Assembly (NCBI GenBank): GCA_035553595.1
Contig: DATMKA010000193.1
Coordinates: 1 to 47,889, forward strand
Direction: 5' to 3'
DNA length: 47,889 bases
Source of the DNA: Thermoplasmatota archaeon
Lineage (GTDB): Archaea > Thermoplasmatota > SW-10-69-26 > JACQPN01 > JAJPHT01
Shown here piece after piece: positions 7,802-44,830 of this stretch; the stretch's first letter is position 1, and each line of letters opens with the position of its first letter. The position numbers were made by a program, and so were the translations under genes. Below the pieces are notes generated by a model. That model worked only from the letters and a program-made list of their open reading frames with translations, did not search any database and was not told the origin of the DNA.

Positions 7802-7858
7802 CAAGGGTTGACAAAGGGTTCATGGTCCCCAGCGGGCCTCCCCGCCGGGAGGACCATC

Positions 7859-16368: not shown

Positions 16369-16457
16369 GCGAATCGCTGCCAGACCCCCTGGTCGGTTGA
16401 AAGCCTTTGTGGTGGCGAAGGCCGGCAACTCCACAGCGGGTCGGCAGAATCTATCCA

Positions 16458-17552
16458 CTATGGAAGAATTCCGTCCAAACGTGGAACGCCTGTTTCGTCA
16501 CGGCAACCCTCGGGCCGACCAAGCTTGAGCAACGTGTCGCATCCGCTCACCGCGATCATTCCATTAGCGTGACCAGTCCCAGAGATTGCCACTGGCGGGA
16601 CACATACAAGCGTTCTACACGTGGTTGCAGTCTTAGCATCTCCTGTACCGCTCACCGCAATATCGCCCCCCGACGCATTGCCGGTCGCGGACGCCGCCAA
16701 GGTGGGATCACACACCGTATTACAACCCTCGGAGAAGGCGTCGCCGGTAAGGCTTACTGCCCTGGATCCACGTGCCGTCCCAAACCCGCTCAGGGAAAGG
16801 ACCTGCCCCCATAGGGCATCCCCCGTACCGCTCACTGCGAGGGCGTCCCCTCGGGCCGTGCCGTTGCGGCTGATCCCCACATCCTGCCCCCAGGCGTCGC
16901 CGCCCCCACCGACGGCCACCAAGCCACACCAATACCCTTTCGAATAGTAATAGTGAGGGCAGCGGCTGGCGTTACCGTGGGTACTTACACTCGCCCAGTA
17001 CCCATCGGCCCGCTCAGTGTCATTGATTGCAAAGCACTCTCGGCCATTGCAAGTTCCCGCCCCAAAGGCAATCGGGCCCCTTGAGGCACCGAGGATGGAA
17101 AGCGAGGCATCATCCCCGCTGGCGTTGCCAGTGCCACTCACCGCGACGCAATCCACAATCCCCCTACACCAGTCGACGCCAGTCGCCCGAGCATCCCCCG
17201 ACCCTGAGATCGCGGTTTGGCCTTCACTGTTTCCGGTCCCGCTCACCGAGGCCGTCGTAAGGCAATGGTAAAGGTATAGGACAATGGAAGTCCTACACCC
17301 GTAGGCAGACTTCGCATCACCTGTTCCGCTTATTGCCAGAGCAACGCAGTGACGGCCGGGGAGAGACGGGGAGCAGAACGGTCGGGATGCTTCGGCATCT
17401 CCATACGCGCTGACTGCCAACCAATCACCCTTGGCATCACGGTCAACTGCGATGTCATAAGGGGATGCAGCAGCCCATCCCGAAATGAGACTAGGCAGTA
17501 CGCAGAGGACGAGAAAGACGGATCTCAAATCCAGCCACCCAGACCGACACAT
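16458..17552 (-). CDS. secreted Cys-rich repeat protein with about 13 copies of an [AVI]-S-G-T-G-[DN]-A-type motif; no known family
   Basis: 364-aa ORF with a signal-peptide-like N-terminus (LRSVFLVLCVLPSLISGWAAA). Eight canonical repeats (AISGTGDA, VSGTGNS, AISGSGDA, AVSGTGNA, AVGGGGDA, AVSGTGDA x2, AISGTGHA) plus about 5 degenerate ones. About 18 Cys. The true start may be the TTG at 17528, preceded by GGGTGG. Confidence 0.6.
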   Translation of the reverse strand: MCRSGWLDLRSVFLVLCVLPSLISGWAAASPYDIAVDRDAKGDWLAVSAYGDAEASRPFCSPSLPGRHCVALAISGTGDAKSAYGCRTSIVLYLYHCLTTASVSGTGNSEGQTAISGSGDARATGVDWCRGIVDCVAVSGTGNASGDDASLSILGASRGPIAFGAGTCNGRECFAINDTERADGYWASVSTHGNASRCPHYYYSKGYWCGLVAVGGGGDAWGQDVGISRNGTARGDALAVSGTGDALWGQVLSLSGFGTARGSRAVSLTGDAFSEGCNTVCDPTLAASATGNASGGDIAVSGTGDAKTATTCRTLVCVPPVAISGTGHANGMIAVSGCDTLLKLGRPEGCRDETGVPRLDGILP

Positions 17553-19687: not shown

Positions 19688-19695
19688 TTTAAATA
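19688..19695 (+). promoter_or_regulatory. strong TATA-like box (TTTAAATA) upstream of the wHTH regulator gene
   Basis: TTTAAATA in an otherwise GC-rich spacer, about 40 nt upstream of the TTG at 19729 and about 80 nt upstream of the ATG at 19771. Confidence 0.35.
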
Positions 19696-19770
19696 CGGCA
19701 GCCGGATACTAAGGCGTAGCACGGGGCCTTGTCAAAGCCCTTAGCACGGATTCTCCGGAGCGACCCTCCC

Positions 19771-20109
19771 ATGCCCGAAACCGAAGCCGGCCAAGCCGAA
19801 GCCTATCCCGAGAGCAGCCTCACAGGGAAGATTGAGACGGAACTCGACCTCCTGCAGCGCCACGTGGCCATCCTGAAGGCCGTGAAGGACAACGAGCCCA
19901 TCGGCATCATCCGCCTCTCCGAGATCACGGGCCACCCGCAGCACAAGGTGCGGTACAGCCTGCGCATCCTCGAGCAGGAAGGCCTCATCGAGCCCTCGGC
20001 CCAGGGCGCTGTGACGACGGACCGACTCAACGAGTTCATTCCCCACCTCCGCCACATCCTCAACCTGATGACGGACACGGTGACGGAGCTCCGCAAGACG
20101 ATTGGTTGA
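19771..20109 (+). CDS. winged helix-turn-helix transcriptional regulator (archaeal, family not resolved)
   Basis: LLQRHVAILKAVKDNEPIGIIRLSEITGHPQHKVRYSLRILEQEGLIEPS is a classic wHTH. ATG at 19771 follows a GGAG about 10 nt upstream. The TTG at 19729 is an alternative start. Confidence 0.6.
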   Translation: MPETEAGQAEAYPESSLTGKIETELDLLQRHVAILKAVKDNEPIGIIRLSEITGHPQHKVRYSLRILEQEGLIEPSAQGAVTTDRLNEFIPHLRHILNLMTDTVTELRKTIG

Positions 20110-31181: not shown

Positions 31182-31313
31182 GGGTTCTCCGCGCCCCACA
31201 AGGGGCAAGCAGAGTAGAGAAGGAGGTAATTAAGGGACCTTCGCTTAACGAATGGAAAGCCGGTGGGAGGGCCAAGAAAAATAAGAGTCTGGCGGACCCG
31301 TGTTGGGTTCCGC

Positions 31314-31719: not shown

Positions 31720-32961
31720 TCAGGGAAGGATCACGGACTCGCCCGTGACCGGCAAGTGCACCTTCGCGAACTCGCCGAGGGCCTCCGCGAGGGGGCCACG
31801 GTTGTCGCTGTGGAAGAGCACGATGTCCTGGGCGCGGCAGGCGCGCGCGAAGGCCACAATCTCGTCGTGGCCCGCGTGGGCGCTGAAGTCGAAGCGGCGG
31901 ACCTCGCAGGCCACCTTCTCCGTGACGCCGGCCACGTTGAGCGTGCCCGTCTCGAGGAGGTTGCGGCCACCGGACCCGGGCACCTGGAAGCCCGTGAAGA
32001 AGACGGCGGACTTGGGGTCCTTGTGCATCTGCTCCACGTAGTGCACCGAGGGACCGCCCTCGAGCATGCCCGAGGTGGCGACGATGACATCACCCTGGAG
32101 GGCGCGCTCACGCATGTGGCGGCTCTTCACGAGGTGCGTCCGCTGGAAGGCCTCGTTGAGGTCGCGGGGGCTCTTGAGGTAGCGGGACTCCGCGAGCATG
32201 ATCTGCGTCACGGTCTTCCCCATGCCGTCAAGCCACACCTCGTACCCGGCCTTCGCGAGAAGCAGCAGGATCTCCTGCGTGCGCCCCGTGGCGAAGCTCG
32301 GGACGAGGACGCGGCCGCCCTGGCTCACGATGCCGTCCACGGCGTCGAGGAAGGCCTCCTCGGTCTGCTTGCGGTCGGGGTGGTTGCGGCCACTGTAGGT
32401 GGCTTCGATGATGAGCGTGTCGCAGGGGACGGGCTTCGCGGGCTTCTGCAGGCGCGTCTCCACGAGGTTGATGTCGCCCGTGAAGAGCGTGGTCTTCCCC
32501 GCCTGCGGGTCCCGGACCTCGAACATGGTGCTGCCGGGGATGTGGCCTGCGCTGTGGAAGCGCATCTCCACACCGCGGCCCGCATCGAAGGTCTCCCCGT
32601 GGTGGATGTGCTCGAAGGCCGCGTTCATGGCCTCCACGTCCTCCATGGTGTAGGGGTAGGGGTAGCCTTCGGCCTTGCAGATCTTCAGGGAGTCCCTCGC
32701 GAGCAGGTCCGCGATGGGCGAGCTCACGGGAGTCGTGTAGATGGGGGCCCGCCGGTGGCCGGCAAACCAGGGGAGGTAGCCGGAGTGGTCGAGGTGGGCA
32801 TGGCTGAGGAAGGCCATGTCCACGTCGGGCGCAGGGTCAGGGTACTGGGGCGGGTCGGAGGGCGCGATACCATAGTCGAAGAGGTAGCTGTTGCCAGCCA
32901 CCTCCATGACCATGCCGAGCCGACCGACTTCGTTGACGCCGCCGAGGAACTTCAGCCGCAC
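31720..32961 (-). CDS. beta-CASP metallo-beta-lactamase-fold ribonuclease without KH domains (aCPSF2-like)
   Basis: MBL motif LSHAHLDHSGYLP, then HSAGHIPGS, the beta-CASP region (IIEATYSG, VLVPSFATGRTQE) and C-terminal FSAHAGHDE. 413 aa. GTG start 7 nt after the stop of the upstream giant gene. Confidence 0.8.
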   Translation of the reverse strand: MRLKFLGGVNEVGRLGMVMEVAGNSYLFDYGIAPSDPPQYPDPAPDVDMAFLSHAHLDHSGYLPWFAGHRRAPIYTTPVSSPIADLLARDSLKICKAEGYPYPYTMEDVEAMNAAFEHIHHGETFDAGRGVEMRFHSAGHIPGSTMFEVRDPQAGKTTLFTGDINLVETRLQKPAKPVPCDTLIIEATYSGRNHPDRKQTEEAFLDAVDGIVSQGGRVLVPSFATGRTQEILLLLAKAGYEVWLDGMGKTVTQIMLAESRYLKSPRDLNEAFQRTHLVKSRHMRERALQGDVIVATSGMLEGGPSVHYVEQMHKDPKSAVFFTGFQVPGSGGRNLLETGTLNVAGVTEKVACEVRRFDFSAHAGHDEIVAFARACRAQDIVLFHSDNRGPLAEALGEFAKVHLPVTGESVILP

Positions 32962-32968
32962 CGGGCCT

Positions 32969-35900
32969 TCACTCCTCTCGGCCGCCGCGGGAGCGCTTCA
33001 CGACAACCACGGCCGCCACGACGACCACGAGCACGAAGCCGGCGATGAAGTACCAGTAGTCGCGCAGGAAGTCGTTGACTCCCTTGTTGGTCGCGTCCTG
33101 GACCGTCTCGGCCTTCGTGTCGAAGTAGTGCGTGTATTCCGCCTTCTTGGGGTCGGTGCGGATACCGTAGAGCGTGCTGCTGCGGGAGTCGGGGGCCTGG
33201 GCCACCTCGGTCACCACATCGTCGGCGAAGCTCGACTCGTCGTCGCCTGCGTTGAAGTACAGGACGGGAACGAGGTCGTCCTCGACATCGTAGATGAGGA
33301 ACTCGCGGCCGTCCGTGCGGACGATGCTGACCTCGCGGGCCTTGCGGATGGCGAACTCGGGGTCCTCACCCGTGAAGAAGGCCGAGTCGACCTCCTCCTC
33401 GCCACCCTCAGGACCCGTGCGGTCGAAGAGGTAGACGGGGCGGCCGTTGCCGGAGTCGAACACGAACTGGACCGCGCTCAGGATACCGAGGGAGGGGTTC
33501 CAGTAGGTGTCGCCCTCGCCCTCGCCGGAGGAGCGGCGGTTCGTGTCGAGGATGAAGGTGGTCTTCCCGTCACCCTCGGCGAAGAACGTCTCCACCACGC
33601 GGCTGCGCGTCGAGGCGGGGTTCCACTCGCGGAACACCTCGAAGCCGTTCGCGGGGTTGCGGTCGAGGTCGATGGCGAGCTCCTCGATGTCGTCGCCGTC
33701 CACGTCGTCGTGCTTGAAGTTGTACACGGCCACGTCGAAGTTGCCGCGCTGGCTCACGTTGAGCACGCGCTGCGTGCGGAGGGCGTCGAGGCTCCAGCCG
33801 TACACGGTGACCGTGCGGTCGCCAGGCTGGACCCACTCGCCACCGCGTTCGGTGGTGGGCGGCACGAAGCTGATGGTGACTTCCTTCTCCTCACCGGGCT
33901 TGAGGGTGAGGGGACGGTTGTCGAGCTCCACGCGGCGCTCCCAGGTGCGGTTGTCCCGGTTGGGAAGCGCGGCGATGAAGGTCAGGTTGTCCCAACCGTT
34001 GCCTTCGTTCTTCACGCGGAACTTGATGCTGCCGGACCCGCCGGGCTCGATCCAGAGCTTGTCCTTCGGCATCTGGAGGCTGAAGGCGTACTCGTGGATT
34101 TCCGCCGTGACCGAGCGCTCGGCGCGGCCCACGGCCGTCTTCGCGGCGGTGTAGGCGATGAGGGTGGCCGTGACGGAGGCGGCGCGCTCGGCATCCGCGG
34201 GAGCGGACACGTTGAGGAACACCTTCTTCGCGGCACCGGGGCCCACCTTAACGAGGGTGATGCCCTGGCGGCCCTGCTCGTCCTCGAGGGTGGCGCGCCA
34301 GCCCGTGGGGAGGTTGGACTGGGGCACTTCGAGGGGGAACTCGCCTTCGAGGCTGCCCACGTTCTTCACGAAGATGGGGAAGCGCACGAAGCCGGCCCGG
34401 TCCACGCTCTTCACGGGCTCGAGGGTGTCGAGGCTCGGCACCGCGGACCCTTCGAGGGTCGTGGTGGTGAAGGTGAGCAGGTTCACGGGGCGGTTGTTGC
34501 CGGTGATGCTGAGGCCGGACTGGCCCTTCGCGAAGGCCCGCACCGTGAAGGGGTAGCTGGACCCGCTCGTGGCACCGAGGGCCTGCACGACGAACTGCAC
34601 CTCGGCCTCCTCCTGGGGTTTGAGGGAGGTGAGCGTGGAGGGGACCACGCTGAGGGTGAAGTTCTTGTTGATGGTGGGGTCGGACGCGTTGGGGAACACG
34701 TCGAAGCTCACCGTCAGGCGCTCGTTGTACAGGTTCTTCACCTTGAAGGTGAAGTTCTGGGGCTCCGAGCGGCCGTTCTGGATGGCGATGGGCTTCACGA
34801 GCACGGAGGCATCCATGGGGAGGCGGCTCGCGATGTCGCGGTCGAGGATGAGGTGGCGGATGCTCGCCGAGGCGAGGTCCTTCTTCTCATCCGTCTGGCA
34901 CTTGTCCTGGCCGGTGAAGGCGCAGACGCGGTACCGGATGGAGCCGTCGCCCGTCTCCGTCTGGGGAATGTCCACGGTGGCCGTGACGACGCGGCGGTCG
35001 CCGGGGCCGATCGTGAGAATCGCCTGGGGAAGGGTGACGGACCAGGGGAGCGTCGCCGGGACCACGGGCTGGATGAGCACCGTGGCGGACTTCGCGCCCG
35101 TGTTCTCGATGGTGAGCGGGTAGCTCGAGGGCGTGCCCGCGCGCACCGTCACTTCCTTGGGCGCCGTGAAGGCCACGCCTTCGTTGCTGCGGACGTCCAC
35201 CTTGAGGTAGTAGTACTGGGGCTCGCCGAGCTTCTCAAGAGCCTTGACGACGAGGGTGGGCGCGATGCTGTCCACGTTCACCTTGGCGTTGGCGGGAGCC
35301 GTCACGCGGATGCGGATCTGGTGCTCCCAGTTGGTCACCATGGGCACGTAGGGCGTGTTGCGCGCCCCGCGGACCTGGAAGCTCGGAGGAATCAGGTTCA
35401 TGGCCGTCTTCCAGTCGAACTTCGCCGAGTCGGTGGTGTTCTGCGTCTCGTTACGCATCTCCACCTTCCAGCCCTCGGGGAACTGGCCGATCAGGGTGAG
35501 GTTCAGGCTGCGGTTGTTGAACTCCTGGCGGACGACATTATTGCTGGTGGTCCAGTTGTACCAACCGGTCACCCAGTTGTGGAGGTTGCTCACACGGTAG
35601 CTGAACTCGACAGACTGGCCGGGGAGGACGGTCTTCTGGTTGGTCTCGTCCGTCGCAATCTTGCGGGCCTCATCGTAGTTCGCGAGGGGGCGCAGGGGCT
35701 CAGCGTGGAACTCGAACGTGCGGACCTGAGGGTCGCTCTCCTTGTCGGATCCCTTCGCCTGATAGACCCCCTTGAGGGACACCTGTACCGCGTTCTTCAC
35801 GGTGGTGTTGCTCTTGTCGATGGCTTCCACCGCCATGGAGAGGGTGCGGCCGAGGAAGTACACGGAGTCCGTCTGGCGGACCTTCACGTACACCTCCGCG

Positions 35901-38374
35901 CGCTCGCCGGGGGCGAGGTCCTTGACCTCGTAGCCGCTCACGCCGCCCACGGTGGTGGTCGTGAGGGACTTCCACTGGTAGGAGATCCCGCTCGGGCTCA
36001 CGACGGGGCGGTAGTGGCCGAAGTCGGCGCGCTCGTTGCTGGGCTCGCGGGTGTCGGGGAAGGGAGAGGCCTGAGGACGGAAGAAGGTCGGGGGGAACAC
36101 ATCCGTAATCTCGGGGCTTCCAGACTCCTGGAAGCTCGCGATGCGGAGCAGGTAGTCCGTCTTGAGGGTGCCCGTGTTGGTGACCCAGAGGCGGAACTGG
36201 ACCCAGTCCGGCGCGCGCTGGTCGAGCTCGTAGTCGCCGCTCACTCCAGGCGGCTTACCGCCGGAGCCCTGGTAGAGGGCGGCGGTGTCCGCCGTTCCCG
36301 TACCGCAGGTGACGTTCCACCAGTCGTTCTTGTTGTTGTCCTTCGTGCTGTACGAAGCGTACGTGCTGCCAGGCAGAGCCTCGTTGTCGGGGAAGCACCC
36401 GCGCAGCACCGTGGCGGAGGCCGTGGTCTGCATCTTCTCGGACGAGGGGTCGAAGACCTGGAGGTCGAACTTGCTCACGCCGCGAAGGACGGTGTCGAGG
36501 AGCTTCGTGGGGGAGCGCACGTCCGCGAGACCGCCGAGGCTCGTCGCGATGGCGGTGAGGCGGAAGGTGCGGTCGGTGCGCTCCGCGGTGGGGGGCGTGG
36601 TCACGCTCACCGTGACGACCGCCACCTGGCCGGGGGGAACGTCCGTGACGCGCACGTCGCCCTTTGGCGTGTAGTCGAAGCCCGTGGCGCCGCCCGCCGT
36701 CAGGTTCAGGATGAAGGAGTCGTGGTCGTTGCCCTTGTTCCACACGAGCACGTCGTAGCTCGTCCCACCGATGGTGGTGAGCACCTCACGGGTCTTGTCC
36801 GTGATGAGCTCCACGCCGCGCTGCTGGTTCGCCACGAGGGTCGTGGCGAGGGTGACCGTCTGCTCCGTGGGGTCGAGGAGGCTGCGGGCGGTGATGGTGA
36901 GGGAGGACACGTCGCCCACCTTGCCGTCGCCAGGAGCGGTGACGGTGACGGGGATGCGGCGGGTCTCACCGGGGCGGAGGCTGAACTGCACGTTCTGCTG
37001 GGCGAGCTCGCCGCTCACGTCCCAGGCGCGCGTGTTCCACTTCGTGGAGAGGGTGAACGCGTCGGCCGTGGCGCCGCCATTCTTGAGGGAGAGGAGGTAG
37101 GTGGTGGACTTCACGCCGGTGGTGCCGTTGAAGATGGCGTGGCCAGCGGAGTCGCCGCTGACGAGCCCGAAGGTGAAGGCAGTGGAGGAGATGCTGAAGG
37201 TGGTGGAGACGGGGAGGACGAGGTTGTCTCCGCCGCGCTTGAGCTTCACCGAGTAGTCCCACTTGTACGTGCCCACGGAGAGGTGCTCGTACTTGAAGAC
37301 GGGGAGCTGCCACACGCTGAGGCCCTGAGCCTCGGCGTTCGTGTTGGTGGGCTTGAGGGGGACGGCCGAGGGGTGGTTGGGGTCCGAGATGTTCATGTCC
37401 ACCGCGTTGCCCTTCGGGTCCTTGGCAGTGGCGAGGATCTCGAAGTTGTTCGTGGTGCGGTCCTCGCCGCCACGGGCCGTGGGCGTGGTGCCGAAGGCGC
37501 TCTTCACGGCAATCCAGGCCGAGAGGCGGTTCTCGGCGTTGTTGTCCTTCCTCGCGAAGGTGTTGTCGGAGGGGAGCTTGTTGGCGGAGTCGAGGAACCA
37601 GGGGGCCGCGTAAACGAAGTCCTTGGCCGTGAACTGGAGGTTGCTCGGGGCCTGCTGGCTCTCGTAGAAGAGCGTCCAGGTGGGGGCCTGGGCTGCGCCG
37701 CCGATCACCGAGTCGGTTCCGTAGCGGGCCGTGAGGTGGACGCGGATGCGGTAGTCCACGGGCACGACGACTTCCGCCTTGGGGAGGGGGAGCTTCGCGT
37801 GGAGGAGGCTGCGGCTGAGGGAGCCCGCGACGTTGGTCGCGTTGGCCGCCTGGATACGGTAGTCCTTGACGATCTCGAGCATCGAGGGGTCGCCGTCCTT
37901 CTGGGCGTCGATGTCGACCTCCCAGTAGAGGCCCGACTCGATGTCGGTCGGGGCCGGGCGCCCCACATAGAAGCTGATCTCGGGGAGCGTGCTCTTCACG
38001 AGGGTGATCTCGTGGGTGAGCGCGGGGGAGACGAAGAGCGCTTCAGGGCGGTCGGTGCCACCGTAGGTTTCCATCTTGTGGCCGGGGTTCGCCGGGTTCG
38101 CGGCTTCGTCCACCGTGGGCCGGCCAAGACCGAGGTAGTGGACGTCGATGGGGAACTGGTCGGCAGGGTCCGAGTCGGTGTCGAGACCCTTGAAGTAAAC
38201 CTTGTGGGTGCCGAAGAGCGCCTCCCAGGGACCCTTCACGTCAGCCGTGGGGCCTGTGGGCGGGAGGACGACGGCCGCGGCGGCCGGCGTGGCCAGGAAG
38301 GAGAAGGCCGGAAGCAGGAAGGCAAAGGCGAGGGCCACGGCCTTGAAGCGGGTTGCGCGGGAGGACTGGTTCAT
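32969..38374 (-). CDS. giant (1801 aa) cell-surface protein: signal peptide, 10 or more Ig-like CARDB/NEW3-type modules, acidic C-terminal region, C-terminal TM anchor
   Basis: Internal ATG (CAT 38372-38374, preceded by GAGGTGA) gives MNQSSRATRFKAVALAFAFLLPAFSFLATPAAAA. Recurrent module signatures: LKNGGATAD, VWNKGNDHD, VTNTGTLKT, IENTGAKSA, VKNVGSLEG, VKNEGNGWD, each followed by PGE/PGQ...V.V.V strands. At least 15 N-x-S/T sequons. The tail YWYFIAGFVLVVVVAAVVVVKRSRGGREE is a TM helix plus basic stop-transfer. Confidence 0.8.
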   Translation of the reverse strand: MNQSSRATRFKAVALAFAFLLPAFSFLATPAAAAVVLPPTGPTADVKGPWEALFGTHKVYFKGLDTDSDPADQFPIDVHYLGLGRPTVDEAANPANPGHKMETYGGTDRPEALFVSPALTHEITLVKSTLPEISFYVGRPAPTDIESGLYWEVDIDAQKDGDPSMLEIVKDYRIQAANATNVAGSLSRSLLHAKLPLPKAEVVVPVDYRIRVHLTARYGTDSVIGGAAQAPTWTLFYESQQAPSNLQFTAKDFVYAAPWFLDSANKLPSDNTFARKDNNAENRLSAWIAVKSAFGTTPTARGGEDRTTNNFEILATAKDPKGNAVDMNISDPNHPSAVPLKPTNTNAEAQGLSVWQLPVFKYEHLSVGTYKWDYSVKLKRGGDNLVLPVSTTFSISSTAFTFGLVSGDSAGHAIFNGTTGVKSTTYLLSLKNGGATADAFTLSTKWNTRAWDVSGELAQQNVQFSLRPGETRRIPVTVTAPGDGKVGDVSSLTITARSLLDPTEQTVTLATTLVANQQRGVELITDKTREVLTTIGGTSYDVLVWNKGNDHDSFILNLTAGGATGFDYTPKGDVRVTDVPPGQVAVVTVSVTTPPTAERTDRTFRLTAIATSLGGLADVRSPTKLLDTVLRGVSKFDLQVFDPSSEKMQTTASATVLRGCFPDNEALPGSTYASYSTKDNNKNDWWNVTCGTGTADTAALYQGSGGKPPGVSGDYELDQRAPDWVQFRLWVTNTGTLKTDYLLRIASFQESGSPEITDVFPPTFFRPQASPFPDTREPSNERADFGHYRPVVSPSGISYQWKSLTTTTVGGVSGYEVKDLAPGERAEVYVKVRQTDSVYFLGRTLSMAVEAIDKSNTTVKNAVQVSLKGVYQAKGSDKESDPQVRTFEFHAEPLRPLANYDEARKIATDETNQKTVLPGQSVEFSYRVSNLHNWVTGWYNWTTSNNVVRQEFNNRSLNLTLIGQFPEGWKVEMRNETQNTTDSAKFDWKTAMNLIPPSFQVRGARNTPYVPMVTNWEHQIRIRVTAPANAKVNVDSIAPTLVVKALEKLGEPQYYYLKVDVRSNEGVAFTAPKEVTVRAGTPSSYPLTIENTGAKSATVLIQPVVPATLPWSVTLPQAILTIGPGDRRVVTATVDIPQTETGDGSIRYRVCAFTGQDKCQTDEKKDLASASIRHLILDRDIASRLPMDASVLVKPIAIQNGRSEPQNFTFKVKNLYNERLTVSFDVFPNASDPTINKNFTLSVVPSTLTSLKPQEEAEVQFVVQALGATSGSSYPFTVRAFAKGQSGLSITGNNRPVNLLTFTTTTLEGSAVPSLDTLEPVKSVDRAGFVRFPIFVKNVGSLEGEFPLEVPQSNLPTGWRATLEDEQGRQGITLVKVGPGAAKKVFLNVSAPADAERAASVTATLIAYTAAKTAVGRAERSVTAEIHEYAFSLQMPKDKLWIEPGGSGSIKFRVKNEGNGWDNLTFIAALPNRDNRTWERRVELDNRPLTLKPGEEKEVTISFVPPTTERGGEWVQPGDRTVTVYGWSLDALRTQRVLNVSQRGNFDVAVYNFKHDDVDGDDIEELAIDLDRNPANGFEVFREWNPASTRSRVVETFFAEGDGKTTFILDTNRRSSGEGEGDTYWNPSLGILSAVQFVFDSGNGRPVYLFDRTGPEGGEEEVDSAFFTGEDPEFAIRKAREVSIVRTDGREFLIYDVEDDLVPVLYFNAGDDESSFADDVVTEVAQAPDSRSSTLYGIRTDPKKAEYTHYFDTKAETVQDATNKGVNDFLRDYWYFIAGFVLVVVVAAVVVVKRSRGGREE

Positions 38375-38460
38375 ACGGTCACCTCGAAGAGGTCGGGGTT
38401 GGGATGGCCGGGCCGCCGAAGCGGATCGACCAGCGACAGGGACAGAGGAGGAGGCGCGCG

Positions 38461-40881
38461 TCACTGGCGGCGCACCCCCTGGCGGCGCGCGGCGAAGGCC
38501 GCAAGCGCAAGGAGCAGGCCCGCGAGGCCGAAGCCGGGGGCCGGCACGTTGTTCTGCTGGTTGACGGTGGGAGGCTTGGGCGTGGGCTCCTTCACCTTCA
38601 CGACAAGCGTGTGGTTCTTCCACTCGAGGGGCTTGTCGGCGAGGCTCAGGTTCACGACGGAGCGCAGGGTCTCGCCGATGACGTCCTTCGCGCCAGGCTC
38701 GCGCCCACCGGGAACGGTCACGGTGACGTTCAGCTTGTACGTCTTGCCCTTCGGCACGACGAAGCTGTACTCGTCGACGTTGACGTTCCAGCCGCGGAGG
38801 TCGGTCGGGCCGTCCTCGATGAGGGTGCCGACGCGGATGACCGCGTCCGTGGTGCCGGTGTTCCGCACGTTGATGACGTACTTCGCGGCCTTGCCGGGCT
38901 CCACGAGGCGGGAGGCACCGTCAAGGCTCGACTCGAAGCTCGTCACGGGGTTCACAAGGTAGGAGATGGTCTCGGAGAAGCGGGTCTGGCCGCTCACCGC
39001 GCTCACCGTCACGTTCATGCGCGCCCCGTCGGGAGCGTCGCTCGGCACGAGGATGCGGAGCCTGGTGGTCGTGGTGGACTTCGCAGGCACCTGGAGGACA
39101 CCGCTCGCATCCGCCCCGGAGAGCGTGTACTCCCAGGTGGCGGAGGGAGTGCCCCGCTGGCGCACCCCGAGGGTCACCGTGGCGGGAACGTTGCCGGTGT
39201 TGGCAAGAAGGAGCGCCACCTCATCGGTGTCCCCCTGCTTCACCTGGCGAGAGAGGTCGCCAAGGAGTTGGACGGCAAAGGCACGGATGGGCTCCACGTT
39301 GAGGGCCAGCGTCGCGTTCTTCGGGATGGCGCCGGGCGCGGTCGCGCTCACGACGGCCTGAAGGGTGCCCGTGCCCGCGTTCCGCGCGACGAGGGTGAGG
39401 TTCGCCTCGATGCTCTCACCGGGGCGGAGCGTGAAGAGGGTGGGCTCGAGGAGGGTGGCGATGCCGCCGCTCGCGTTCACGCCGAGCTGGAAGGTCTGGG
39501 CGATGCTGCCGTCGTTGCGCACCTTCACGGGGATGCTCAGGGGAACATCGTTGCGGATCGTGTAGTTCGCGGCGAGGTCCTCGCGGCCGGGGGAGGTGAC
39601 GAGGCCGAAGCCGAAGGCGCGGGTGGCATCGTAGGCGTACACGCGGGACCCGTCGGCGAGGGCAACGCGGGCGCCGTCGGCGCTAAGGGCGATGCCGCGC
39701 ACGTCGTTGAGGCCGGCAATCGTCCAGATGGGGACGGGCTCAGCGGCGTGGAAGGCGAAGCCCTTCCCGTTGGCGGCCGCGAGGTAGGTGCCGTCGGCGG
39801 AGAGGGAAAGGGCCCGCACGGGCTGGCTCGCGCCGAGGCCGTAGCTCCAGCGCTGGGCGATATCGCCGTTCGCATTGAGGGCGAAGAGCACGATGGCCGT
39901 GCCGTTTCCGACCGCGAAGGCGCGCCCGTCGTGGGACATGGCGGTGGCGGTCACGAGGCTGCGACCGAGGCCGACGCTGCCGCGGAGGGCGGTGCTCTCG
40001 GCCTGGTTGGGGTAGACGAGGATGCCGCCCGCCTGGGTGACGGCCGTGAAGAGGGTCCCGTCGCGGCTCATGCGGACGTGGTGGACGATGCTGTCGTCCA
40101 CGCCGGGGAGCGTCGCGTTCCAGACGCGGCTGACGCCGAGACCGCTGTAGTGGTAGAGGGAGAGGGCACCGTAGGAGAGGCCGCCAACGACCTCGCGGCC
40201 GCCGGCCACGATCCACTGGCCATCGCCGCTCATGGCGACGGACGTGAGGACGCCCGGGTGGCCCCCGGCGAAGACCTGGCTGCCGGTGCCGCCCGTGGTG
40301 AAGAGGTAGAGTTTGCCGGTGGTGCCGTCGCCGGCGCTCACGGCGAGGACGCCGCCGTTCGCGCTCAGGGCAAGACCCGTCACGGGCTCCGCGATCCGCT
40401 TGGACCAGTTGGCGCCGGTGCGGGCGTTCATCACGAACACGTTCTCGGTGTCCGTGTAGGTGGCGCCGCCGGCGATCATGCGCCCGTCGGCGGAGGCGGC
40501 GACGACGCGCGTGGCCTCGGAGTTGATGCGGGCGAGGCGCTGGGAGGTCTGGGTCGGGTTGCCCCCGAGGCCGCCCGCGCCTTCCGGCACGTCGTCGAAG
40601 GCGTAGGCGAAGCCGCGCGTGAAGTTGTAGGCGAAGAAGTCGTCGTCGAACTGGTCGTCCTGGCCGCTGGTCGCGAGGGTGCGGGTGTCAGTGCCCACGG
40701 CCATACTATCGACCGTGTCGGAGGCGGCGAAGGCAAGGACGGGGCCCCCTGGGGGCACCTGGGTGGTTGTGGCCCAGGTCTGCGCCTTGGGGGGCGCGGC
40801 GAGGACGGTAGGGGATCCGACGAGGAGGGCCGGCAGCAGAAGCACGCCGACCATGAACAAGACTTGCTTTACGCTGCCCAT
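38461..40881 (-). CDS. surface protein: signal peptide, multi-blade beta-propeller, three Ig-like CARDB/NEW3-type modules, PGF-CTERM-like anchor
   Basis: Internal ATG (CAT 40879-40881) gives MGSVKQVLFMVGVLLLPALLVGSPTVLAAP. Blade motifs: LALSANGGVLAV, VAMSGDGQWIVA, VRMSRDGTLFTA, TAMSHDGRAFAV, LSLSADGTYLAA, IALSADGARVAL. Modules VRNDGSIAQ, LANTGNVPA, VRNTGTTDA. C-terminus EPTPKPPTVNQQNNVPAPGFGLAGLLLALAAFAARRQGVRRQ. Confidence 0.8.
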   Translation of the reverse strand: MGSVKQVLFMVGVLLLPALLVGSPTVLAAPPKAQTWATTTQVPPGGPVLAFAASDTVDSMAVGTDTRTLATSGQDDQFDDDFFAYNFTRGFAYAFDDVPEGAGGLGGNPTQTSQRLARINSEATRVVAASADGRMIAGGATYTDTENVFVMNARTGANWSKRIAEPVTGLALSANGGVLAVSAGDGTTGKLYLFTTGGTGSQVFAGGHPGVLTSVAMSGDGQWIVAGGREVVGGLSYGALSLYHYSGLGVSRVWNATLPGVDDSIVHHVRMSRDGTLFTAVTQAGGILVYPNQAESTALRGSVGLGRSLVTATAMSHDGRAFAVGNGTAIVLFALNANGDIAQRWSYGLGASQPVRALSLSADGTYLAAANGKGFAFHAAEPVPIWTIAGLNDVRGIALSADGARVALADGSRVYAYDATRAFGFGLVTSPGREDLAANYTIRNDVPLSIPVKVRNDGSIAQTFQLGVNASGGIATLLEPTLFTLRPGESIEANLTLVARNAGTGTLQAVVSATAPGAIPKNATLALNVEPIRAFAVQLLGDLSRQVKQGDTDEVALLLANTGNVPATVTLGVRQRGTPSATWEYTLSGADASGVLQVPAKSTTTTRLRILVPSDAPDGARMNVTVSAVSGQTRFSETISYLVNPVTSFESSLDGASRLVEPGKAAKYVINVRNTGTTDAVIRVGTLIEDGPTDLRGWNVNVDEYSFVVPKGKTYKLNVTVTVPGGREPGAKDVIGETLRSVVNLSLADKPLEWKNHTLVVKVKEPTPKPPTVNQQNNVPAPGFGLAGLLLALAAFAARRQGVRRQ

Positions 40882-40972
40882 GACATCACCCGCGGTGCCG
40901 TGTCCATCATGATCTTGGTATCTAAGGGTTTCTTCCGGGTCGCTCTGACGGCCGGTTTCGTCCCTTGCAACG

Positions 40973-43369
40973 TCAGGAGCGCTGCCTCCGGTTAGCGAGG
41001 AGAGCGGCGCCGAGGGCGGCGGCGGAGACCACAAGGAGGTCGCCGGGGCCGGGGACCGTGTACCAGGTCTCCTCCGGCTCCTTCTGGACCTCGACCACCT
41101 TGCGTTCCACCGTGAAGTTGAGGGCGCGCTTCTGGCCGGTGCTCTTCGAGACCGCCTCCACCTTCACCGTCACGGTGCCGCTCTTTTCGAGGGCTGGGGA
41201 GAGGCTGAGGGTGAGCTGGCGGCGCTCGTTGGGCTTGAGCTCGATGGGATCCTCCGTGATGCGGAGGGTCCACTGGGCCGCGCGGCTCGCAGGGGTCACG
41301 TTCGCGTACACCTGGTAGGTGTCCAGGATGTTGCCGGCGTTCTCGAGGCTGAGGCCCACGCGCTTCACTTCACCGGGAGCCACCTCGACGACGTCGTCGT
41401 CCACGGGGGAGGTGAGGGCGAAGCGGTAGTCCGCGTTCACGGTGGCCTCGAGCTTGAGGGCGGGGGAGCGGTACTCCTCGCCGCCGCGGGCCACCACGGA
41501 GATCACGTTGAGGTCGCCGCTCGCGGAGGTGCGGGAGGGCGTGACCTTCACCGCGACCTTCTCAGTCTGGCCCTTCGTGAGGCGGAGCTCGCTCGGTTCG
41601 AAGGTGACGGTCCAGGTGCCGGTCTTCCCGTTCACGCGCTGGATGGCGTCGAAGGTGACGGTCTCGTCCACGTTGCCGCGGTTCTCCACGATCATCGAGA
41701 AGGCCTTCGTGGGGCCGCCCTGCTGGAGGTTGAGGCGGGTCTGGTTGTTCTCCGCCTTGAGGAGGAGGTTGTGGAGGCTCTTCACGCGGATGTAGAGCTG
41801 CGCCGTGGCGGGGGCGGAGCCGTCGCCGGGCGTCGCGGTGAAGGAGACGGGGTAGACGCCGGGGGCCGCGAAGGCGGGCGGCACGAAGGTGGCGTTCACG
41901 AGGGCAGAGCCGCCGGGACCGAGCTGGAGGCTGCTCTTTTCGAGGCTCGTGGTCCACCCGGTGGGGCCGGAGCCCGTGAGAAGGTAGGCGCCGTGAAGGC
42001 TGCCGCGGTTCTCCACGCGGAGCTTGAAGGTGCTGCCGGCGGCATCCGTGAGCTCCTGCTCGCTGAGGCCGTCGACGGTGACGCCGGCGGCGCTGAACTG
42101 GCGGTAGAGGTAGGCGCCGCGGGCCGTCGTCGAGGCGCCGACCACGCCGAAGGTCTTCCCGTCGCGGGAGGCCGCGATGCCGCTGAGGGGCACACCCACG
42201 GGGGTGCGCCAGAGGGGGCTGCCGAGGGCGGTGACGCCGGGGCCCGTGTGGAAGGAGACGACATCGCTGCCGGCGGTGGCGAGGAGGATGGTGCCGTCCT
42301 TGCTCATGGCCAGGCTCTTCACCTCGCCGCCGACGTTCGCGTCCGCCCCGAGGGGGTAGAGTTCACGGGCGCCAGGGGAAGCAGCGAGGGGCCGGTTTTC
42401 GAAGAGGGAGATGCGGCCGTTGCTCTTGCCCACCGCGAGGTACTTGCCCTGGGCGTCCATCGCAAGGGACTGGGGGGTGCCGTCGAGCACGGCCGAAGCG
42501 GGGCTGCTCGCCTTCGGGAAGTCGAGGCCCACCTTGGTGAAGTTGAAAAGGTAGACGGCGGCGGCGCCGTTGTTGGGGTTCGTCGTGATGGCCGCGCCGA
42601 GGTTCCCGTCGTCGCTCATGGCGACGCGGAGGGCCTGCCCGCCGCTGAGGGCGCTGAAGTCCACGAGGGGCTTGTCCGCCGTGGCGTCCATGAGGTACAC
42701 GGACTTCTCGGTGCCCAGCATGTAGCGGGTGCCCTTGGAGAAGCCCATACTGAGGACCTTGCCGCCGAGGTTCACGGAGAAGGAGGGCTCCTGGTTGGAG
42801 GAGCCGAAGGGGTTGGAGTAGATGTTCACCTTGTTCACGGCGTTGGGGCCGGTGCCGCCCACGGCGAGAACCACGCGGCCGCCGTTGGCGGTGACGCCGA
42901 CAAGGCCCGCCACCTCGCCGCTCAGGAGAGTGTCGCTCCACTTGGCGGAGCCGAGGTTGTTGATGTCGTACCAGTACACGGCCTCGCCGTAACCGGAGAC
43001 CGCGAAGCCGGTGGCGGGGCCTTCGTCGGAGGCAATGGCCACGGCGATGCGGCCCTGCTTCTCGAGGGCGCCGCCGCTCGGGATGGGCACGCGCCGGGCG
43101 GTGGGGTCGGCGGAGGTGTCCTGGAGCGTGTACACGAAGACGTCCTGGTAGCCGGTGAGGGCGGGGCCCGTGGAGGGGCCCGCGGTGACGGCGATGAAAG
43201 TCTTTCCGAGCGCATCCATCGCAAGACCCGTGGGGTTTGCGGGGAGGCTGTTGCCGCCGTCGACGGTGACCGTCTTGGGCGTGGCGGCGAAGGCGGTGGC
43301 GCCGCTCGCGAGGACACTGACAACGAAGAGTGTGAGCACGAGATTGGCTCGGAGGGCAACGGCACGCAT
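40973..43369 (-). CDS. surface protein paralogous to 38461..40881: signal peptide, beta-propeller, three Ig-like modules, C-terminal PGx-TM-basic anchor
   Basis: MRAVALRANLVLTLFVVSVLASGATAFAATP signal peptide. Blades VAMSDDGNLGAA, LAMDAQGKYLAV, LAMSKDGTILLA, IAASRDGKTFGV. Modules VENRGSLHG, VENRGNVDE, LENAGNILD. Tail TVPGPGDLLVVSAAALGAALLANRRQRS. AGGTGA about 8 nt upstream of the ATG. Confidence 0.8.
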   Translation of the reverse strand: MRAVALRANLVLTLFVVSVLASGATAFAATPKTVTVDGGNSLPANPTGLAMDALGKTFIAVTAGPSTGPALTGYQDVFVYTLQDTSADPTARRVPIPSGGALEKQGRIAVAIASDEGPATGFAVSGYGEAVYWYDINNLGSAKWSDTLLSGEVAGLVGVTANGGRVVLAVGGTGPNAVNKVNIYSNPFGSSNQEPSFSVNLGGKVLSMGFSKGTRYMLGTEKSVYLMDATADKPLVDFSALSGGQALRVAMSDDGNLGAAITTNPNNGAAAVYLFNFTKVGLDFPKASSPASAVLDGTPQSLAMDAQGKYLAVGKSNGRISLFENRPLAASPGARELYPLGADANVGGEVKSLAMSKDGTILLATAGSDVVSFHTGPGVTALGSPLWRTPVGVPLSGIAASRDGKTFGVVGASTTARGAYLYRQFSAAGVTVDGLSEQELTDAAGSTFKLRVENRGSLHGAYLLTGSGPTGWTTSLEKSSLQLGPGGSALVNATFVPPAFAAPGVYPVSFTATPGDGSAPATAQLYIRVKSLHNLLLKAENNQTRLNLQQGGPTKAFSMIVENRGNVDETVTFDAIQRVNGKTGTWTVTFEPSELRLTKGQTEKVAVKVTPSRTSASGDLNVISVVARGGEEYRSPALKLEATVNADYRFALTSPVDDDVVEVAPGEVKRVGLSLENAGNILDTYQVYANVTPASRAAQWTLRITEDPIELKPNERRQLTLSLSPALEKSGTVTVKVEAVSKSTGQKRALNFTVERKVVEVQKEPEETWYTVPGPGDLLVVSAAALGAALLANRRQRS

Positions 43370-43424
43370 CCTGGATTCACCTGGTCCGTGGCGATACGGT
43401 TTCCGCGATGAATCGGGATTGACC

Positions 43425-43444
43425 TATATAAAATCTATTTAATT
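43425..43444 (-). promoter_or_regulatory. AT-rich TATA-like block upstream of the surface-protein gene string
   Basis: The minus strand reads AATTAAATAGATTTTATATA, the only AT-rich segment in the 184-bp spacer. It lies about 56 nt upstream of the ATG at 43369. Confidence 0.4.
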
Positions 43445-43501
43445 GTCGTGCAAAGGTCCGCGTCGCGGATTTGCCTGATATGGGAACGCCGGGACCACAG
43501 G

Positions 43502-43516
43502 AAAAACCGGGCCCGG
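43502..43516 (-). terminator. possible terminator of the rpl37ae-pfdB operon (short GC palindrome followed by T5 on the minus strand)
   Basis: The minus-strand RNA would read ...CCGGGCCCGGUUUUUC, about 40 nt after the prefoldin stop. The stem is short, so the call rests mainly on the oligo-T. Confidence 0.3.
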
Positions 43517-43553
43517 CTCGGGAACCGCTTGCTAGGCTCTGCGGGGAGGGGGC

Positions 43554-43904
43554 TCACGCGCCGCCAAGGGCGGCCTGGAGCTCCTTCTGGAGGCTCGTCA
43601 TGCGCTCCCGGAGGCGCTCTTCCTGGCGCTTCACGGTCTGCAGGCGCACGTCCGTGGTCTCCTTCTGCTCGCGGAGGTCCGCAAGGAGGGTGTCGCGGTC
43701 CTTGGCGCGGATGAGGAGGCCGCCGATGCTGCGGTAGATGACGGCGTCCGGGGCCGCTTTCTCGAGCTCCTCGAGGGTGCGGTCGAGGTCCCGGGCGGAG
43801 ACCTCCATCTGCTGGCGCTGCTGGACGACGACCTGGGCCTGGGACTGGAGCTGCTGAAGCTGCTGGAGCTGGTTCTGGAGTTGAGGGGGAAGGTCGGCGG
43901 CCAT
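43554..43904 (-). CDS. pfdB: prefoldin beta subunit
   Basis: MAADLPPQLQNQLQQLQQLQSQAQVVVQQRQQMEVSARDLDRTLEELEK...IYRSIGGLLIR...: two coiled-coil arms around a beta-hairpin core, the typical size and pattern. Start set at the internal ATG in the frame of ORF 43554..43925. Confidence 0.85.
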   Translation of the reverse strand: MAADLPPQLQNQLQQLQQLQSQAQVVVQQRQQMEVSARDLDRTLEELEKAAPDAVIYRSIGGLLIRAKDRDTLLADLREQKETTDVRLQTVKRQEERLRERMTSLQKELQAALGGA

Positions 43905-43921
43905 GAGGGGTGCCTCCGGGG

Positions 43922-44173
43922 TCAATCGGTTGCGGGCAGCGCCGAGGCCACGTCAAGGGCCGTCGCGCACCACCGCAGGTAGGAATTCACGGCCGCGCGT
44001 AAAGAGGCAACGTCTTCCGCCTCGACGAGGAGGAGGAGCCGGTCGCCGTCCTGGCGCAGGGCCACGGTGCTTCGGGGGAGATCCACCTCCGCCTCGGGAC
44101 CGAGGGCGCCCGCGAGGATGCGGACGGCCTCAGGGGAGTCGAGACGGAGGGTCAGGGTCGCGGAGAGGACCAT
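43922..44173 (-). CDS. pcc1: Pcc1-like KEOPS subunit (tentative)
   Basis: 83 aa. A LRAAVNSYLRW-type motif, small size, and the conserved archaeal position between rpoP and prefoldin beta. Confidence 0.55.
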   Translation of the reverse strand: MVLSATLTLRLDSPEAVRILAGALGPEAEVDLPRSTVALRQDGDRLLLLVEAEDVASLRAAVNSYLRWCATALDVASALPATD

Positions 44174-44176
44174 GCC

Positions 44177-44314
44177 TCAGAAGGCGCGGACCTTCTTCGC
44201 GACGGTGGGGCGCTCCTTGTAGAACACCTTGGAGCCGCAGTAGGGGCAGCGCATGCCGATGTTGTTCGTGTCGAACTCGATGTTGCGCTTGCACTTGCCG
44301 CAGCGGTAATCCAT
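44177..44314 (-). CDS. rpoP: DNA-directed RNA polymerase subunit P (Rpo12)
   Basis: Not in the ORF track because it is under 60 aa. My own translation is MDYRCGKCKRNIEFDTNNIGMRCPYCGSKVFYKERPTVAKKVRAF, a CxxC...CxxC zinc ribbon of the right size, sited 5 nt downstream of rpl37ae. Confidence 0.8.
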   Translation of the reverse strand: MDYRCGKCKRNIEFDTNNIGMRCPYCGSKVFYKERPTVAKKVRAF

Positions 44315-44319
44315 GGGGT

Positions 44320-44607
44320 TCACTCCGAGGGCTTGGCCATCTTCTCAACGGCGTCGCGGATGGCGCGCATGTTCGTGCGGAAGTTCGGGGTCTCGGGCGT
44401 GTAGGCCCCGCCGGCGAACTTGTAGTTGCACTTGCTGCACTGCCAGATGCCAGTGGAGACGCGGGCGACGCGAAGGGCACCGCAGCCGGGACAGGCGTGC
44501 TCGGCCTTCTGGCGGACCTCGACTTCGCGAATGCGGCGGCGGATGGACACACCGTAGCGGGTGCCGAAACGCCCGACCGACTTCACCTTCTTGGTGCGCA
44601 TGGACAT
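44320..44607 (-). CDS. rpl37ae: 50S ribosomal protein L37Ae (eL43)
   Basis: [30 protein letters not shown]...CPGCG...[15 protein letters not shown]: the characteristic N-terminus and C4 zinc ribbon. Internal ATG (CAT 44605-44607) with a GGAGGT about 10 nt upstream. Confidence 0.9.
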
Positions 44608-44830
44608 AGGATAGGGAACCTCCTTTTGGGCAAGCCCGCCATCGGGGCAGCGAGAGGGTCTCGGGTAACCCAGCACGCGCCGGAGGGGGGCGAAGCGCAG
44701 CGTAGAAGCCGATAACCCTACTTAAGGGTTCCCGATCCGGGTCGCGCTCTTCCCGACCCCGCGTGAAGCCGGAGTCACGAGAACGGCCTTAAGCCCTGCC
44801 AAGGCTTCCCCCGGCACGGAGGCTTCTCTC

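Follow-up and report, generated by a model that had tools for sequence, protein, structure and literature searches.

The 47.9-kb contig studied here (DATMKA010000193.1, GC 69%; hereafter the window, to which position numbers refer) carries three large consecutive genes, A, B and C, that form a conserved tripartite surface module of an uncultured, high-GC, soil/sediment clade of Thermoplasmatota. This module has not previously been described. Its proteins belong to no named S-layer or integrin family and are a variant of the archaeal surface proteins built from immunoglobulin-like (Ig-like) arrays and propellers. Most likely, the A-B-C complex forms the main protein coat of the cell, either S-layer-like or glycocalyx-like. 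A first reading of the DNA (the initial annotation) had proposed an undescribed envelope, adhesion or S-layer-like apparatus together with an RNA-processing nuclease. The undescribed triad proves to be conserved, and the nuclease is dropped as one of its parts. The genes concerned are the following:

40973-43369, minus strand: gene A, ATG start, 798 aa
38461-40881, minus strand: gene B, ATG at 40881, 806 aa
32969-38374, minus strand: gene C, ATG start, 1801 aa
31720-32961, minus strand: gene of an aCPSF2-type beta-CASP ribonuclease, GTG start, 413 aa
31314-31667, minus strand: orf117, small predicted two-helix membrane protein, 52 nt 3' of the nuclease gene

The A-B, B-C and C-nuclease spacers measure 91, 86 and 7 nt, respectively. 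Re-reading of the minus strand returned the same coordinates, sizes and spacers for A, B, C and the nuclease gene as the initial annotation, and an independent gene caller found the same four genes on two other assemblies of the locus. Together, A, B and C amount to 3405 codons, that is, a recomputed 21.3% of the window, for which about 21% had been given.

Conservation of the A-B-C order

About a dozen related loci were gathered via one protein relative (P0003), the matches of searches among representative proteins, and scanning of genomes with the nuclease and of metagenomes with the C alignment, the latter adding L035, L036 and L037. Their genes, in order, are:

L003: B, C, nuclease
L004: B, C, 664-aa secreted protein, nuclease, copper ATPase
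L027: prefoldin, A, then contig end
L028: A, B, C
L029: tRNA endonuclease, A, B, C, nuclease, orf116
L030-32: A, B, C
L033: L37ae, RpoP, Pcc1, prefoldin, A, B, C, DsbA
L034: PurSLQ, tRNA endonuclease, A, B, C
L035: L37ae, Pcc1, A, B, C, deaminase-like gene
L036: C, nuclease
L037: L37ae, Pcc1, A, B, C, nuclease, copper ATPase

Every locus that covers a junction keeps it: 8/8 for A-B and 10/10 for B-C (counts drawn from L003, L004, L028, L029, L030, L033, L034, L035, L037 and the window), with protein identities of only 22-40%. In the relatives, these junctions are mostly 4-nt start/stop overlaps. Moreover, the first genes of the related loci always score higher to A and the second genes to B. 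This indicates that the duplication predates the divergence, that both copies were retained and that their order is fixed. The flanking genes vary. Upstream, an L37ae-Pcc1 cluster is found in L033, L035 and L037, and PurSLQ with a tRNA-splicing endonuclease in L029 and L034. Downstream, the triad is followed by the beta-CASP gene, by DsbA or by a deaminase-like gene. Differing flanks around an invariant triad are the signature of a selected operon encoding interacting products. The neighborhood of related genomes thus sustains the A-B-C order proposed in the initial annotation. The idea that the three genes work as a unit encoding a multi-subunit surface assembly also gains support, from the order conserved at such identities, the overlapping starts and the conserved TATA box described below.

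In L029, a 740-aa B-like open reading frame (L029:12387-14609) lies where the public gene call of GCA_964505085.1 puts two opposite-strand reading frames; this call looks like a mis-annotation typical of high-GC DNA.

Transcription and translation signals

Four elements read on the minus strand bear on the expression of the module:

43424-43446, minus strand: promoter-like AT-rich block with TTTATATA (43432-43425), 55-77 nt upstream of the ATG of A
43377-43382, minus strand: AGGTGA Shine-Dalgarno-like site, 7 nt 5' of the ATG of A by direct reading
43502-43526, minus strand: terminator-like hairpin and T5 run (T5 at 43502-43506), right after the prefoldin gene
31274-31299, minus strand: terminator-like hairpin followed by TTATTTTTCT (T5 at 31277-31281), right after orf117

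The block upstream of A is the longest among only 21 AT-rich blocks of the window, and its TTTATATA element is a perfect match to the archaeal TATA consensus TTTAWATA, which occurs twice in 47.9 kb and never in 100 shuffles. Both the TATA-like block and the AGGTGA ribosome-binding site (43382-43377) had been noticed in the initial annotation. A TATA-like box is also present 55-70 nt upstream of the A-like gene in L027, L028, L029, L030, L033 and L034. In L030 and L033 this box is the only AT-rich block across the triad, and in L034 it is the only one at gene starts. Judged by these conserved signals, A, B and C would be transcribed from one strong TATA promoter upstream of A.

From 28 kb to 44.7 kb, the minus strand holds only two T5 runs, at 43502-43506 and 31277-31281, each with a small hairpin before it. 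The putative terminator at 43502-43526 closes the L37ae-RpoP-Pcc1-prefoldin-beta unit and sets the upstream boundary of the module. The run at 31277-31281 is the first on the minus strand beyond the A promoter, and the element at 31274-31299 is predicted to mark the 3' end of the transcription unit. As announced initially, no oligo-T was found in the A-B and B-C spacers. It should, however, be noted that the absence of T5 runs taken alone is weak evidence, since about one such run is expected by chance in 12 kb. The two spacers gave no Rfam match, and their folding (z-scores -1.5 to +0.9) is not unusual. A scan for bacterial-type promoters and terminators was uninformative, except for the two hairpin-plus-T sites that bracket the unit. 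The predicted unit, A-B-C-nuclease-orf117, is ~12.1 kb long, one gene longer than initially proposed. The sequence signals are compatible with a single unit of this extent, within which the A-B-C part is conserved with overlapping genes.

The other perfect TATA consensus of the window, TTTAAATA (19688-19695, plus strand), is located ~35 nt upstream of a small winged-helix (CggR_N/HTH_24) regulator gene (19729-20109).

Proteins A and B

Protein A comprises a WD40-type beta-propeller (aa ~35-440, nt 42050-43267), three Ig-like beta-sandwich domains (aa ~445-756, nt 41102-42037) and a tail with a disordered linker (aa 759-776), a PGPG motif, a transmembrane (TM) helix (aa 778-795, nt 40985-41038) and RRQRS. 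Its AlphaFold2 model, built from a 49-sequence alignment, has a pLDDT of 87.6 and a pTM of 0.74. In this model, helices are found at residues 2-21 (signal peptide) and 778-795 (TM), and 33 strands lie between residues 35 and 440, corresponding to ~8 four-stranded blades by reading of the strand list. The beta-sandwiches extend over about 445-530, 545-645 and 650-756. Protein B has the same layout, with a signal peptide, a WD40-like propeller, three Ig-like domains and a Pro/Thr-rich linker, and its tail consists of a PAPGFG motif, a TM segment and a basic end. In a BLASTP comparison, A and B share 24% identity over 474 aa (E 4e-12). They are ancient, non-redundant paralogs.

The profile of the A family matches 2ymu_A in the PDB at E 7.7e-57, with 458 sequences at E<=1e-3, and in a large protein database it is swamped by WD40 repeat proteins. 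Since the family profile retrieves WD40 structures and proteins, the head of A and B is assigned to the WD40 propeller superfamily. Pfam also detects WD40-type propeller models in B, and NEW3, CARDB and FixG_C-type Ig-like domains in A and B. Ig-type Pfam domains are above cut-off in A, B and C alike: NEW3 (NPCBM_assoc) reaches 34.9 bits in A, 24.4 in B (equal to the cut-off of 24.4) and 41.7 in C, and FixG_C 31.3 bits in B and 53.8 in C (cut-off 25.6). The NF041740 model (choice-of-anchor T, cut-off 70 bits) gives 44.2, 25.0 and 62.5 bits for A, B and C, all below threshold; by these scores, its domain pair is related to the three proteins, which are not members of that family. The calcium motif Dx[DN]x[DN]G was found neither in A nor in B.

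Relatives of A were obtained by exhaustive searching. A word-index search with A returned A itself alone, and those with C and the family profile returned the query, the single relative P0003, or bacterial WD40 proteins. A phmmer search with A through 1.84 billion representatives gave 475 matches, hundreds of which are Ig-array proteins; several dozen are full-length proteins of 760-830 aa with 25-28% identity. A separate family among these matches (P0004, P0005, P0011, P0042 and P0054) is formed by giant NEW3-type Ig arrays (2000-2600 aa) with a TM segment, a charged cytoplasmic stretch and a CxxC...CxxC zinc-ribbon (e.g., CPRCKT...CKQCDALLRLSK) at the C-terminus, an unusual architecture for a surface protein.

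Protein C

Protein C begins with a signal peptide and a family-specific all-beta module (~40-400). A long array of NEW3/FixG_C/CARDB-type Ig-like domains follows (~410-1520), many of them of N-x-G type. The protein ends with a conserved acidic juxtamembrane module (~1525-1770), a YWYF motif, a TM segment and a KRSRGGREE tail. It aligns end to end with six relatives of 1674-1814 aa (22-39% identity), and P0068, P0094 and P0150 are more distant relatives at 18-19% identity. Residues ~1-420 and ~1525-1775 match no Pfam family, no sequence relative of C was found in the PDB, and no propeller is detectable in C. The initial annotation held that the three proteins are built only from propeller blades and Ig-like modules. 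This description fits A and B; for C, which has no propeller and whose ends match no Pfam family, it is true only in the sense that the protein is all-beta.

An AlphaFold2 model of residues 1-520 of C, from a 5-sequence alignment, is all-beta with a pLDDT of 64. Foldseek relates it to proteins with beta-sandwiches in tandem, among them pilins, RbmA and the S-layer protein of Nitrosopumilus, matches that are only indicative in view of the low confidence of the model and its shallow alignment. In the juxtamembrane module, the relatives of C contain 1-8 Dx[DN]x[DN]G motifs (eight in P0094) and the window protein none. C of the window (residues 1525-1801, nt 32972-33802, minus strand) has lost all of these calcium-type motifs, which suggests a relaxed or altered calcium dependence in its lineage.

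Export, anchoring and glycosylation

The sequences of A, B and C all display a signal-peptide-like N-terminus and a C-terminal hydrophobic segment with a basic tail; the signal peptides and C-terminal anchors attributed to the three proteins initially are therefore visible in the sequences and, for A, also in the two helices of the AlphaFold2 model. In the A/B family, the C-terminal consensus is PGPxxxxxLxxLAxAALxxRRR, with P773 invariant. The tripartite tail of PGF-CTERM substrates (P-G-x motif, hydrophobic helix and basic cluster at the extreme C-terminus) is thus present. The TIGR04126 model (PGF-CTERM, cut-off 24.5 bits) did not match the window A and B tails at E<=10, and it gave 21.1 bits, below the cut-off, for the B-like tail of L003. 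Among the window proteins scanned (48 kb of genome), none has an exosortase/archaeosortase Pfam match.

N-glycosylation sequons occur at 0.63, 1.49 and 1.05 per 100 aa in A, B and C, respectively, and at 0-0.56 in the other 13 window proteins examined. Set apart from these 13, orf117 reaches 0.85, owing to one sequon in its 117 aa. Cysteine is absent from A and B and occurs four times in C. The raised sequon densities and the scarcity of cysteine are in keeping with exported archaeal glycoproteins. Searches of Pfam and NCBIfam with A, B and C, and of the PDB with C, gave no enzyme or transporter family match, which agrees with the initial statement that no enzyme, transporter or named S-layer family is represented among them. 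The S-layer family models tested (halobacterial surf_glcprot, the HVO_2072 family, the MEMAR family and others) produced tail-level noise only.

Comparison with known surface systems

In a Foldseek comparison of the A model with the PDB, full-length ectodomains of integrin alpha (alphaM, alphaV, alpha5 and alphaIIb) take the first 24 places, with E-values of 5e-20 to 2.5e-15, a probability of 1.0 and ~800-1050 aligned columns, and with a TM-score of only ~0.3. In integrin alpha (7usl_A, 3ije_A, 7nxd_A), the modules follow the same order as in A, namely a propeller, three beta-sandwich legs, which in integrin alpha are the thigh, calf-1 and calf-2, a TM helix and a short basic tail. The integrin alpha propeller is a seven-bladed FG-GAP propeller (VCBS supercluster) with Dx[DN]xDG calcium loops (PMC3192720, PMC8023676). 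In contrast, the propeller of A and B is of WD40 type, sequence identity is ~11%, and the proteins have neither the calcium-binding Dx[DN]xDG loops nor a GFFKR-type tail. No FG-GAP or VCBS Pfam match was obtained in A or B. The partner subunit that integrin alpha requires has a betaI (VWA-like) domain; a search for a VWA/betaI-type domain in B, C and the flanking genes gave none, only an Ig_VWA7 Ig-like domain below cut-off. Since integrin alpha would be matched by any protein in which Ig domains follow a propeller, the match is to be taken as an architectural analogy. By this comparison, A is an architectural analogue of integrin alpha, not a member of its family.

Among archaeal surface proteins, the S-layer glycoprotein of Haloferax volcanii (csg) is an exported glycoprotein of ~800 aa with Ig-like domains, anchored by the ArtA/PGF-CTERM pathway. 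Its tail consists of a Pro/Thr-rich linker, a C-terminal P-G-x motif, a hydrophobic segment and a basic end. As csg is generally described, A and B share its size and tail layout; it differs in having no propeller and in being encoded by a single gene rather than a triad. Halobacterial S-layer NCBIfam models gave noise-level matches only on the A and B tails. Surface-layer-related proteins of Methanosarcina, reportedly described by Jing et al. in 2002, are said to combine a YVTN seven-bladed beta-propeller with Ig-like (PKD) domains. The S-x-D-G blade motif of A and B would resemble this YVTN/PD40 type. To our knowledge, no conserved three-gene operon, paralogous pair or giant partner is known for the Methanosarcina propeller-PKD proteins.

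In Sulfolobales, SlaA and SlaB form a two-gene S-layer operon of adjacent, co-transcribed genes, in which SlaB is the membrane-anchored stalk component. That system differs in that only SlaB is anchored, versus all three proteins here, and in that it belongs to another phylum and shows no sequence or domain similarity to A, B or C (for the context of SlaA/SlaB, see PMC12207459). The S-layer protein of Nitrosopumilus maritimus (8c8o, 8c8r, 8c8l) has a long Ig-like array. Its three entries appear at ranks 26, 39 and 45 among the matches of C 1-520 (E ~5e-7 to 2e-6), a generic tandem-beta-sandwich match of a model with a pLDDT of 64 and no sequence similarity. The literature on S-layer or integrin-like systems in Thermoplasmatota yielded no description of the A-B-C triad.

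The neighboring nuclease

In the nuclease, the Pfam domains Lactamase_B, Beta-Casp and RMMBL are all above their cut-offs, and HAHLDH and other catalytic motifs are visible. The protein aligns to positions 176-602 of the 631-position aCPSF1 model with 229 bits (cut-off 580), without the KH extension. The aCPSF2 group (COG1236) is defined by a metallo-beta-lactamase/beta-CASP/RMMBL core of ~420 aa devoid of the KH N-terminal extension of aCPSF1 (PMC3553952). The 413-aa protein fits this group by its sequence, and exonuclease activity is predicted at most.

The nuclease gene is directly 3' of C in 5 of the 8 loci with a known downstream region, and nuclease identity goes down to 47%. Thus, of the order A-B-C(-aCPSF2) considered initially, the last adjacency is far less constant than the first two. 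In the window, GAGGAG inside the last codons of C is the Shine-Dalgarno site of the nuclease gene, and in L003, the closest relative, the ribosome-binding site is likewise within the last codons of C; the gap is 7-8 nt in both, which fits co-transcription. In other relatives, the nuclease gene is 110-250 nt away, behind terminator-like or hairpin elements and with TATA-like boxes of its own. The gap measures 112 nt in L029 and ~145-170 nt in L036 and L037. In the latter two, a TATA-like box precedes the nuclease ATG by ~25 nt, suggesting that the nuclease has a separate, leaderless transcript. C and the nuclease gene of L004 are separated by a further gene and two T-runs, and the nuclease gene there comes with AT boxes of its own. 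L033 and L035 retain the whole triad, with DsbA and a deaminase-like gene, respectively, in the place of the nuclease. Finally, other Thermoplasmatota aCPSF2 loci are without A, B or C. Separation or replacement in L004, L033 and L035, and promoter-like boxes of its own in other loci, argue against counting the nuclease in the module: it looks like a frequent neighbor, probably co-transcribed in the window genome, and not a conserved part. The initial proposal of co-transcription is thus plausible for the window and L003, and the proposal that the nuclease belongs to the system is not supported, given its displacement and replacement in relatives. In the window, aCPSF2 and orf117 are probably on the same long transcript as the triad, a link that would be genomic and not mechanistic.

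The idea that the nuclease is native to an L37ae-Pcc1-prefoldin neighborhood into which A-B-C was inserted was also considered; it was rejected, none of 21 other Thermoplasmatota aCPSF2 loci having any of those genes within 10 kb.

Several observations were made around these genes. Between the C-like gene and aCPSF2 of L037, a near-perfect inverted repeat of ~60 nt (gatgcaacccgaaccaacgaacc...ggttcgctggttcgggttgcatc) is found at ~14340-14480, and the box TTTAAGAA follows it, ~25 nt before the nuclease ATG. The intervening gene of L004 (L004:7762-9756, Thermoplasmatota metagenome-assembled genome (MAG) JBFILE010000017) encodes the 664-aa signal-peptide protein, which matches no Pfam family, with T6-T7 runs on either side. 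In Poseidoniia (Marine Group II/III) MAGs, a protein of ~890-925 aa ends 4 nt before the aCPSF2 start codon (L016, L019, L020, L021, L023 and L025; e.g., L021:7342-9984, with aCPSF2 at ~9989). Its features are a signal peptide, Ig domains of NEW3/FixG_C type, a TM segment and, as its tail, the acidic sequence DDWDDWE. Its identification as a short ortholog of C was examined with hhalign, which gave a probability of 96.8% with an Ig domain included and 0.6% (E 0.1) for the N-domains alone; it was rejected, as only Ig domains are shared with C.

Possible functions of the module

In the reading that we favor, to which we give an even chance, the three proteins are subunits of a single surface complex that is conserved, co-expressed and anchored in the membrane, an S-layer-like coat or envelope with A/B heteromeric propeller heads. 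The three proteins would be exported via their Sec-type signal peptides and held at the membrane by their C-terminal anchors. In A and B alike, a WD40-type propeller head would be raised on three Ig-like domains and secured through a flexible linker by a PGF-CTERM-like anchor, and the two could pair as a heteromer through their propellers or legs. C, an all-beta Ig array of far greater length with a head and an acidic juxtamembrane module of its own, may associate with A and B, and the three together may cover the membrane and mediate contact with the outside.

Several points weigh against this reading. That A, B and C form a complex, and that the complex forms a lattice, we infer from sequence. 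No named S-layer family of NCBIfam or Pfam matches A, B or C above cut-off. Anchors are found on A, B and C alike, unlike the canopy-plus-stalk logic of SlaA/SlaB. The sequon density of A (0.63) is barely above that of other window proteins. The conservation of order within one clade partly reflects shared ancestry, since in L037 even the copper ATPase, which is unrelated, has kept its position. Sampling covers about a dozen loci, as word-index searches found almost no relatives. Moreover, cultivated Thermoplasmatales have been studied that are without an S-layer (PMC12448462), so that a lattice is no given in this phylum. Finally, propeller heads are typical ligand-binding modules, which an adhesin or a receptor would fit equally well.

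An integrin-like adhesion or receptor complex rather than a coat is accordingly the alternative to which we give the most thought, although on balance we judge it unlikely. A-B would then be a heterodimeric ligand-binding propeller head and C a co-receptor or spacer. The proteins would occur in moderate numbers of copies, with surfaces, partner cells or substrates as their ligands. Propellers are classic ligand-binding platforms, the two paralogous subunits are always kept side by side, and A, with its propeller, three beta-sandwich legs, single TM helix and short tail, places whole integrin alpha ectodomains in the 24 best Foldseek positions. However, TM-scores are ~0.3 and any propeller plus Ig protein would match integrin alpha; the propeller is of WD40 and not FG-GAP type, the Dx[DN]x[DN]G motif is absent from both A and B, and neither a VWA/betaI-domain partner nor a cytoplasmic signaling tail accompanies it. 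It is very improbable, in our view, that A, B and C are independent, functionally unrelated surface proteins, adjacent through inherited gene order only. Synteny is generally high in the clade, L037 keeping L37ae-Pcc1-A-B-C-CASP-CopA like the window, and these domain types are common in archaeal secreted proteins, as illustrated by the hundreds of Ig-array proteins obtained with A. Nevertheless, the triad survives a change of both flanks, and 4-nt overlaps, a single promoter box and a fixed A-then-B orthology at 22-28% identity are hallmarks of selected operons.

A functional role of the nuclease in the system, with aCPSF2 processing or tuning the ~12-kb polycistronic mRNA, or surface-protein expression being coupled to RNA turnover, appears improbable. 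The 7-8 nt gap with a ribosome-binding site in C (window and L003), the position of aCPSF2 directly after C in 5/8 loci at identities down to 47% and the Poseidoniia ~900-aa Ig-array membrane protein ending 4 nt before aCPSF2 speak for it. However, the triads of L033 and L035 have a DsbA or a deaminase-like gene in its place; in L004 the 664-aa gene and two T-runs intervene and separate AT boxes serve the nuclease gene; a TATA-like box stands ~25 nt before the ATG in L036 and L037, with a long hairpin after C in L037, which suggests a leaderless transcript of its own. Besides, the Poseidoniia protein shares only Ig domains with C (0.6% by hhalign for the N-domain), and aCPSF2 is present in most archaea without such neighbors (PMC3553952). 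Bolder still, and hardly to be counted on, would be that an integrin-alpha-shaped A/B heterodimer and C make up a new archaeal lattice or adhesion receptor, with the placement of aCPSF2, here and in Poseidoniia, coupling envelope synthesis to 5'-3' RNA decay.

The envelopes of most uncultured archaea are unknown, and Thermoplasmatota holds both wall-less and S-layer-bearing members. In one uncultured soil/sediment lineage, the conserved, syntenic A-B-C module is now a concrete surface candidate. For A, a high-confidence model is available (WD40 propeller, three-Ig leg, sorting-signal-like anchor), and the module gives defined targets for cryo-electron tomography, metaproteomics and heterologous expression. 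It also adds one more case of a WD40 propeller that is extracellular and laid out as in integrin alpha. As a caution, function should not be read into the neighboring RNase gene.

Genomic surroundings

The triad is directly preceded by housekeeping genes:

43555-44676, minus strand: L37ae, a 47-aa gene, Pcc1 and prefoldin beta

These genes are the tail of the archaeal exosome-type superoperon, and the 47-aa gene upstream of Pcc1 corresponds to the RpoP-type zinc ribbon of L033. On the other side, a copper-type P-ATPase is encoded downstream of orf117. The A-B-C locus is surrounded by housekeeping genes, as expected for a core rather than an accessory trait.

No Pfam family matches orf117. In L029, a 116-aa open reading frame (L029:21688-22038) is found 62 nt 3' of the nuclease gene, whose product is 47% identical to the window nuclease. 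It has a similar hydrophobic pattern, and its resemblance to orf117 is by size, position and visual comparison only. Elsewhere in the window, two proteins (7808-9331, plus strand, and 14851-16458, minus strand) carry BNR/Asp-box sialidase-like propeller repeats; both are acidic (pI ~4.6) and cysteine-rich (9-10 Cys), and are possibly further secreted proteins.

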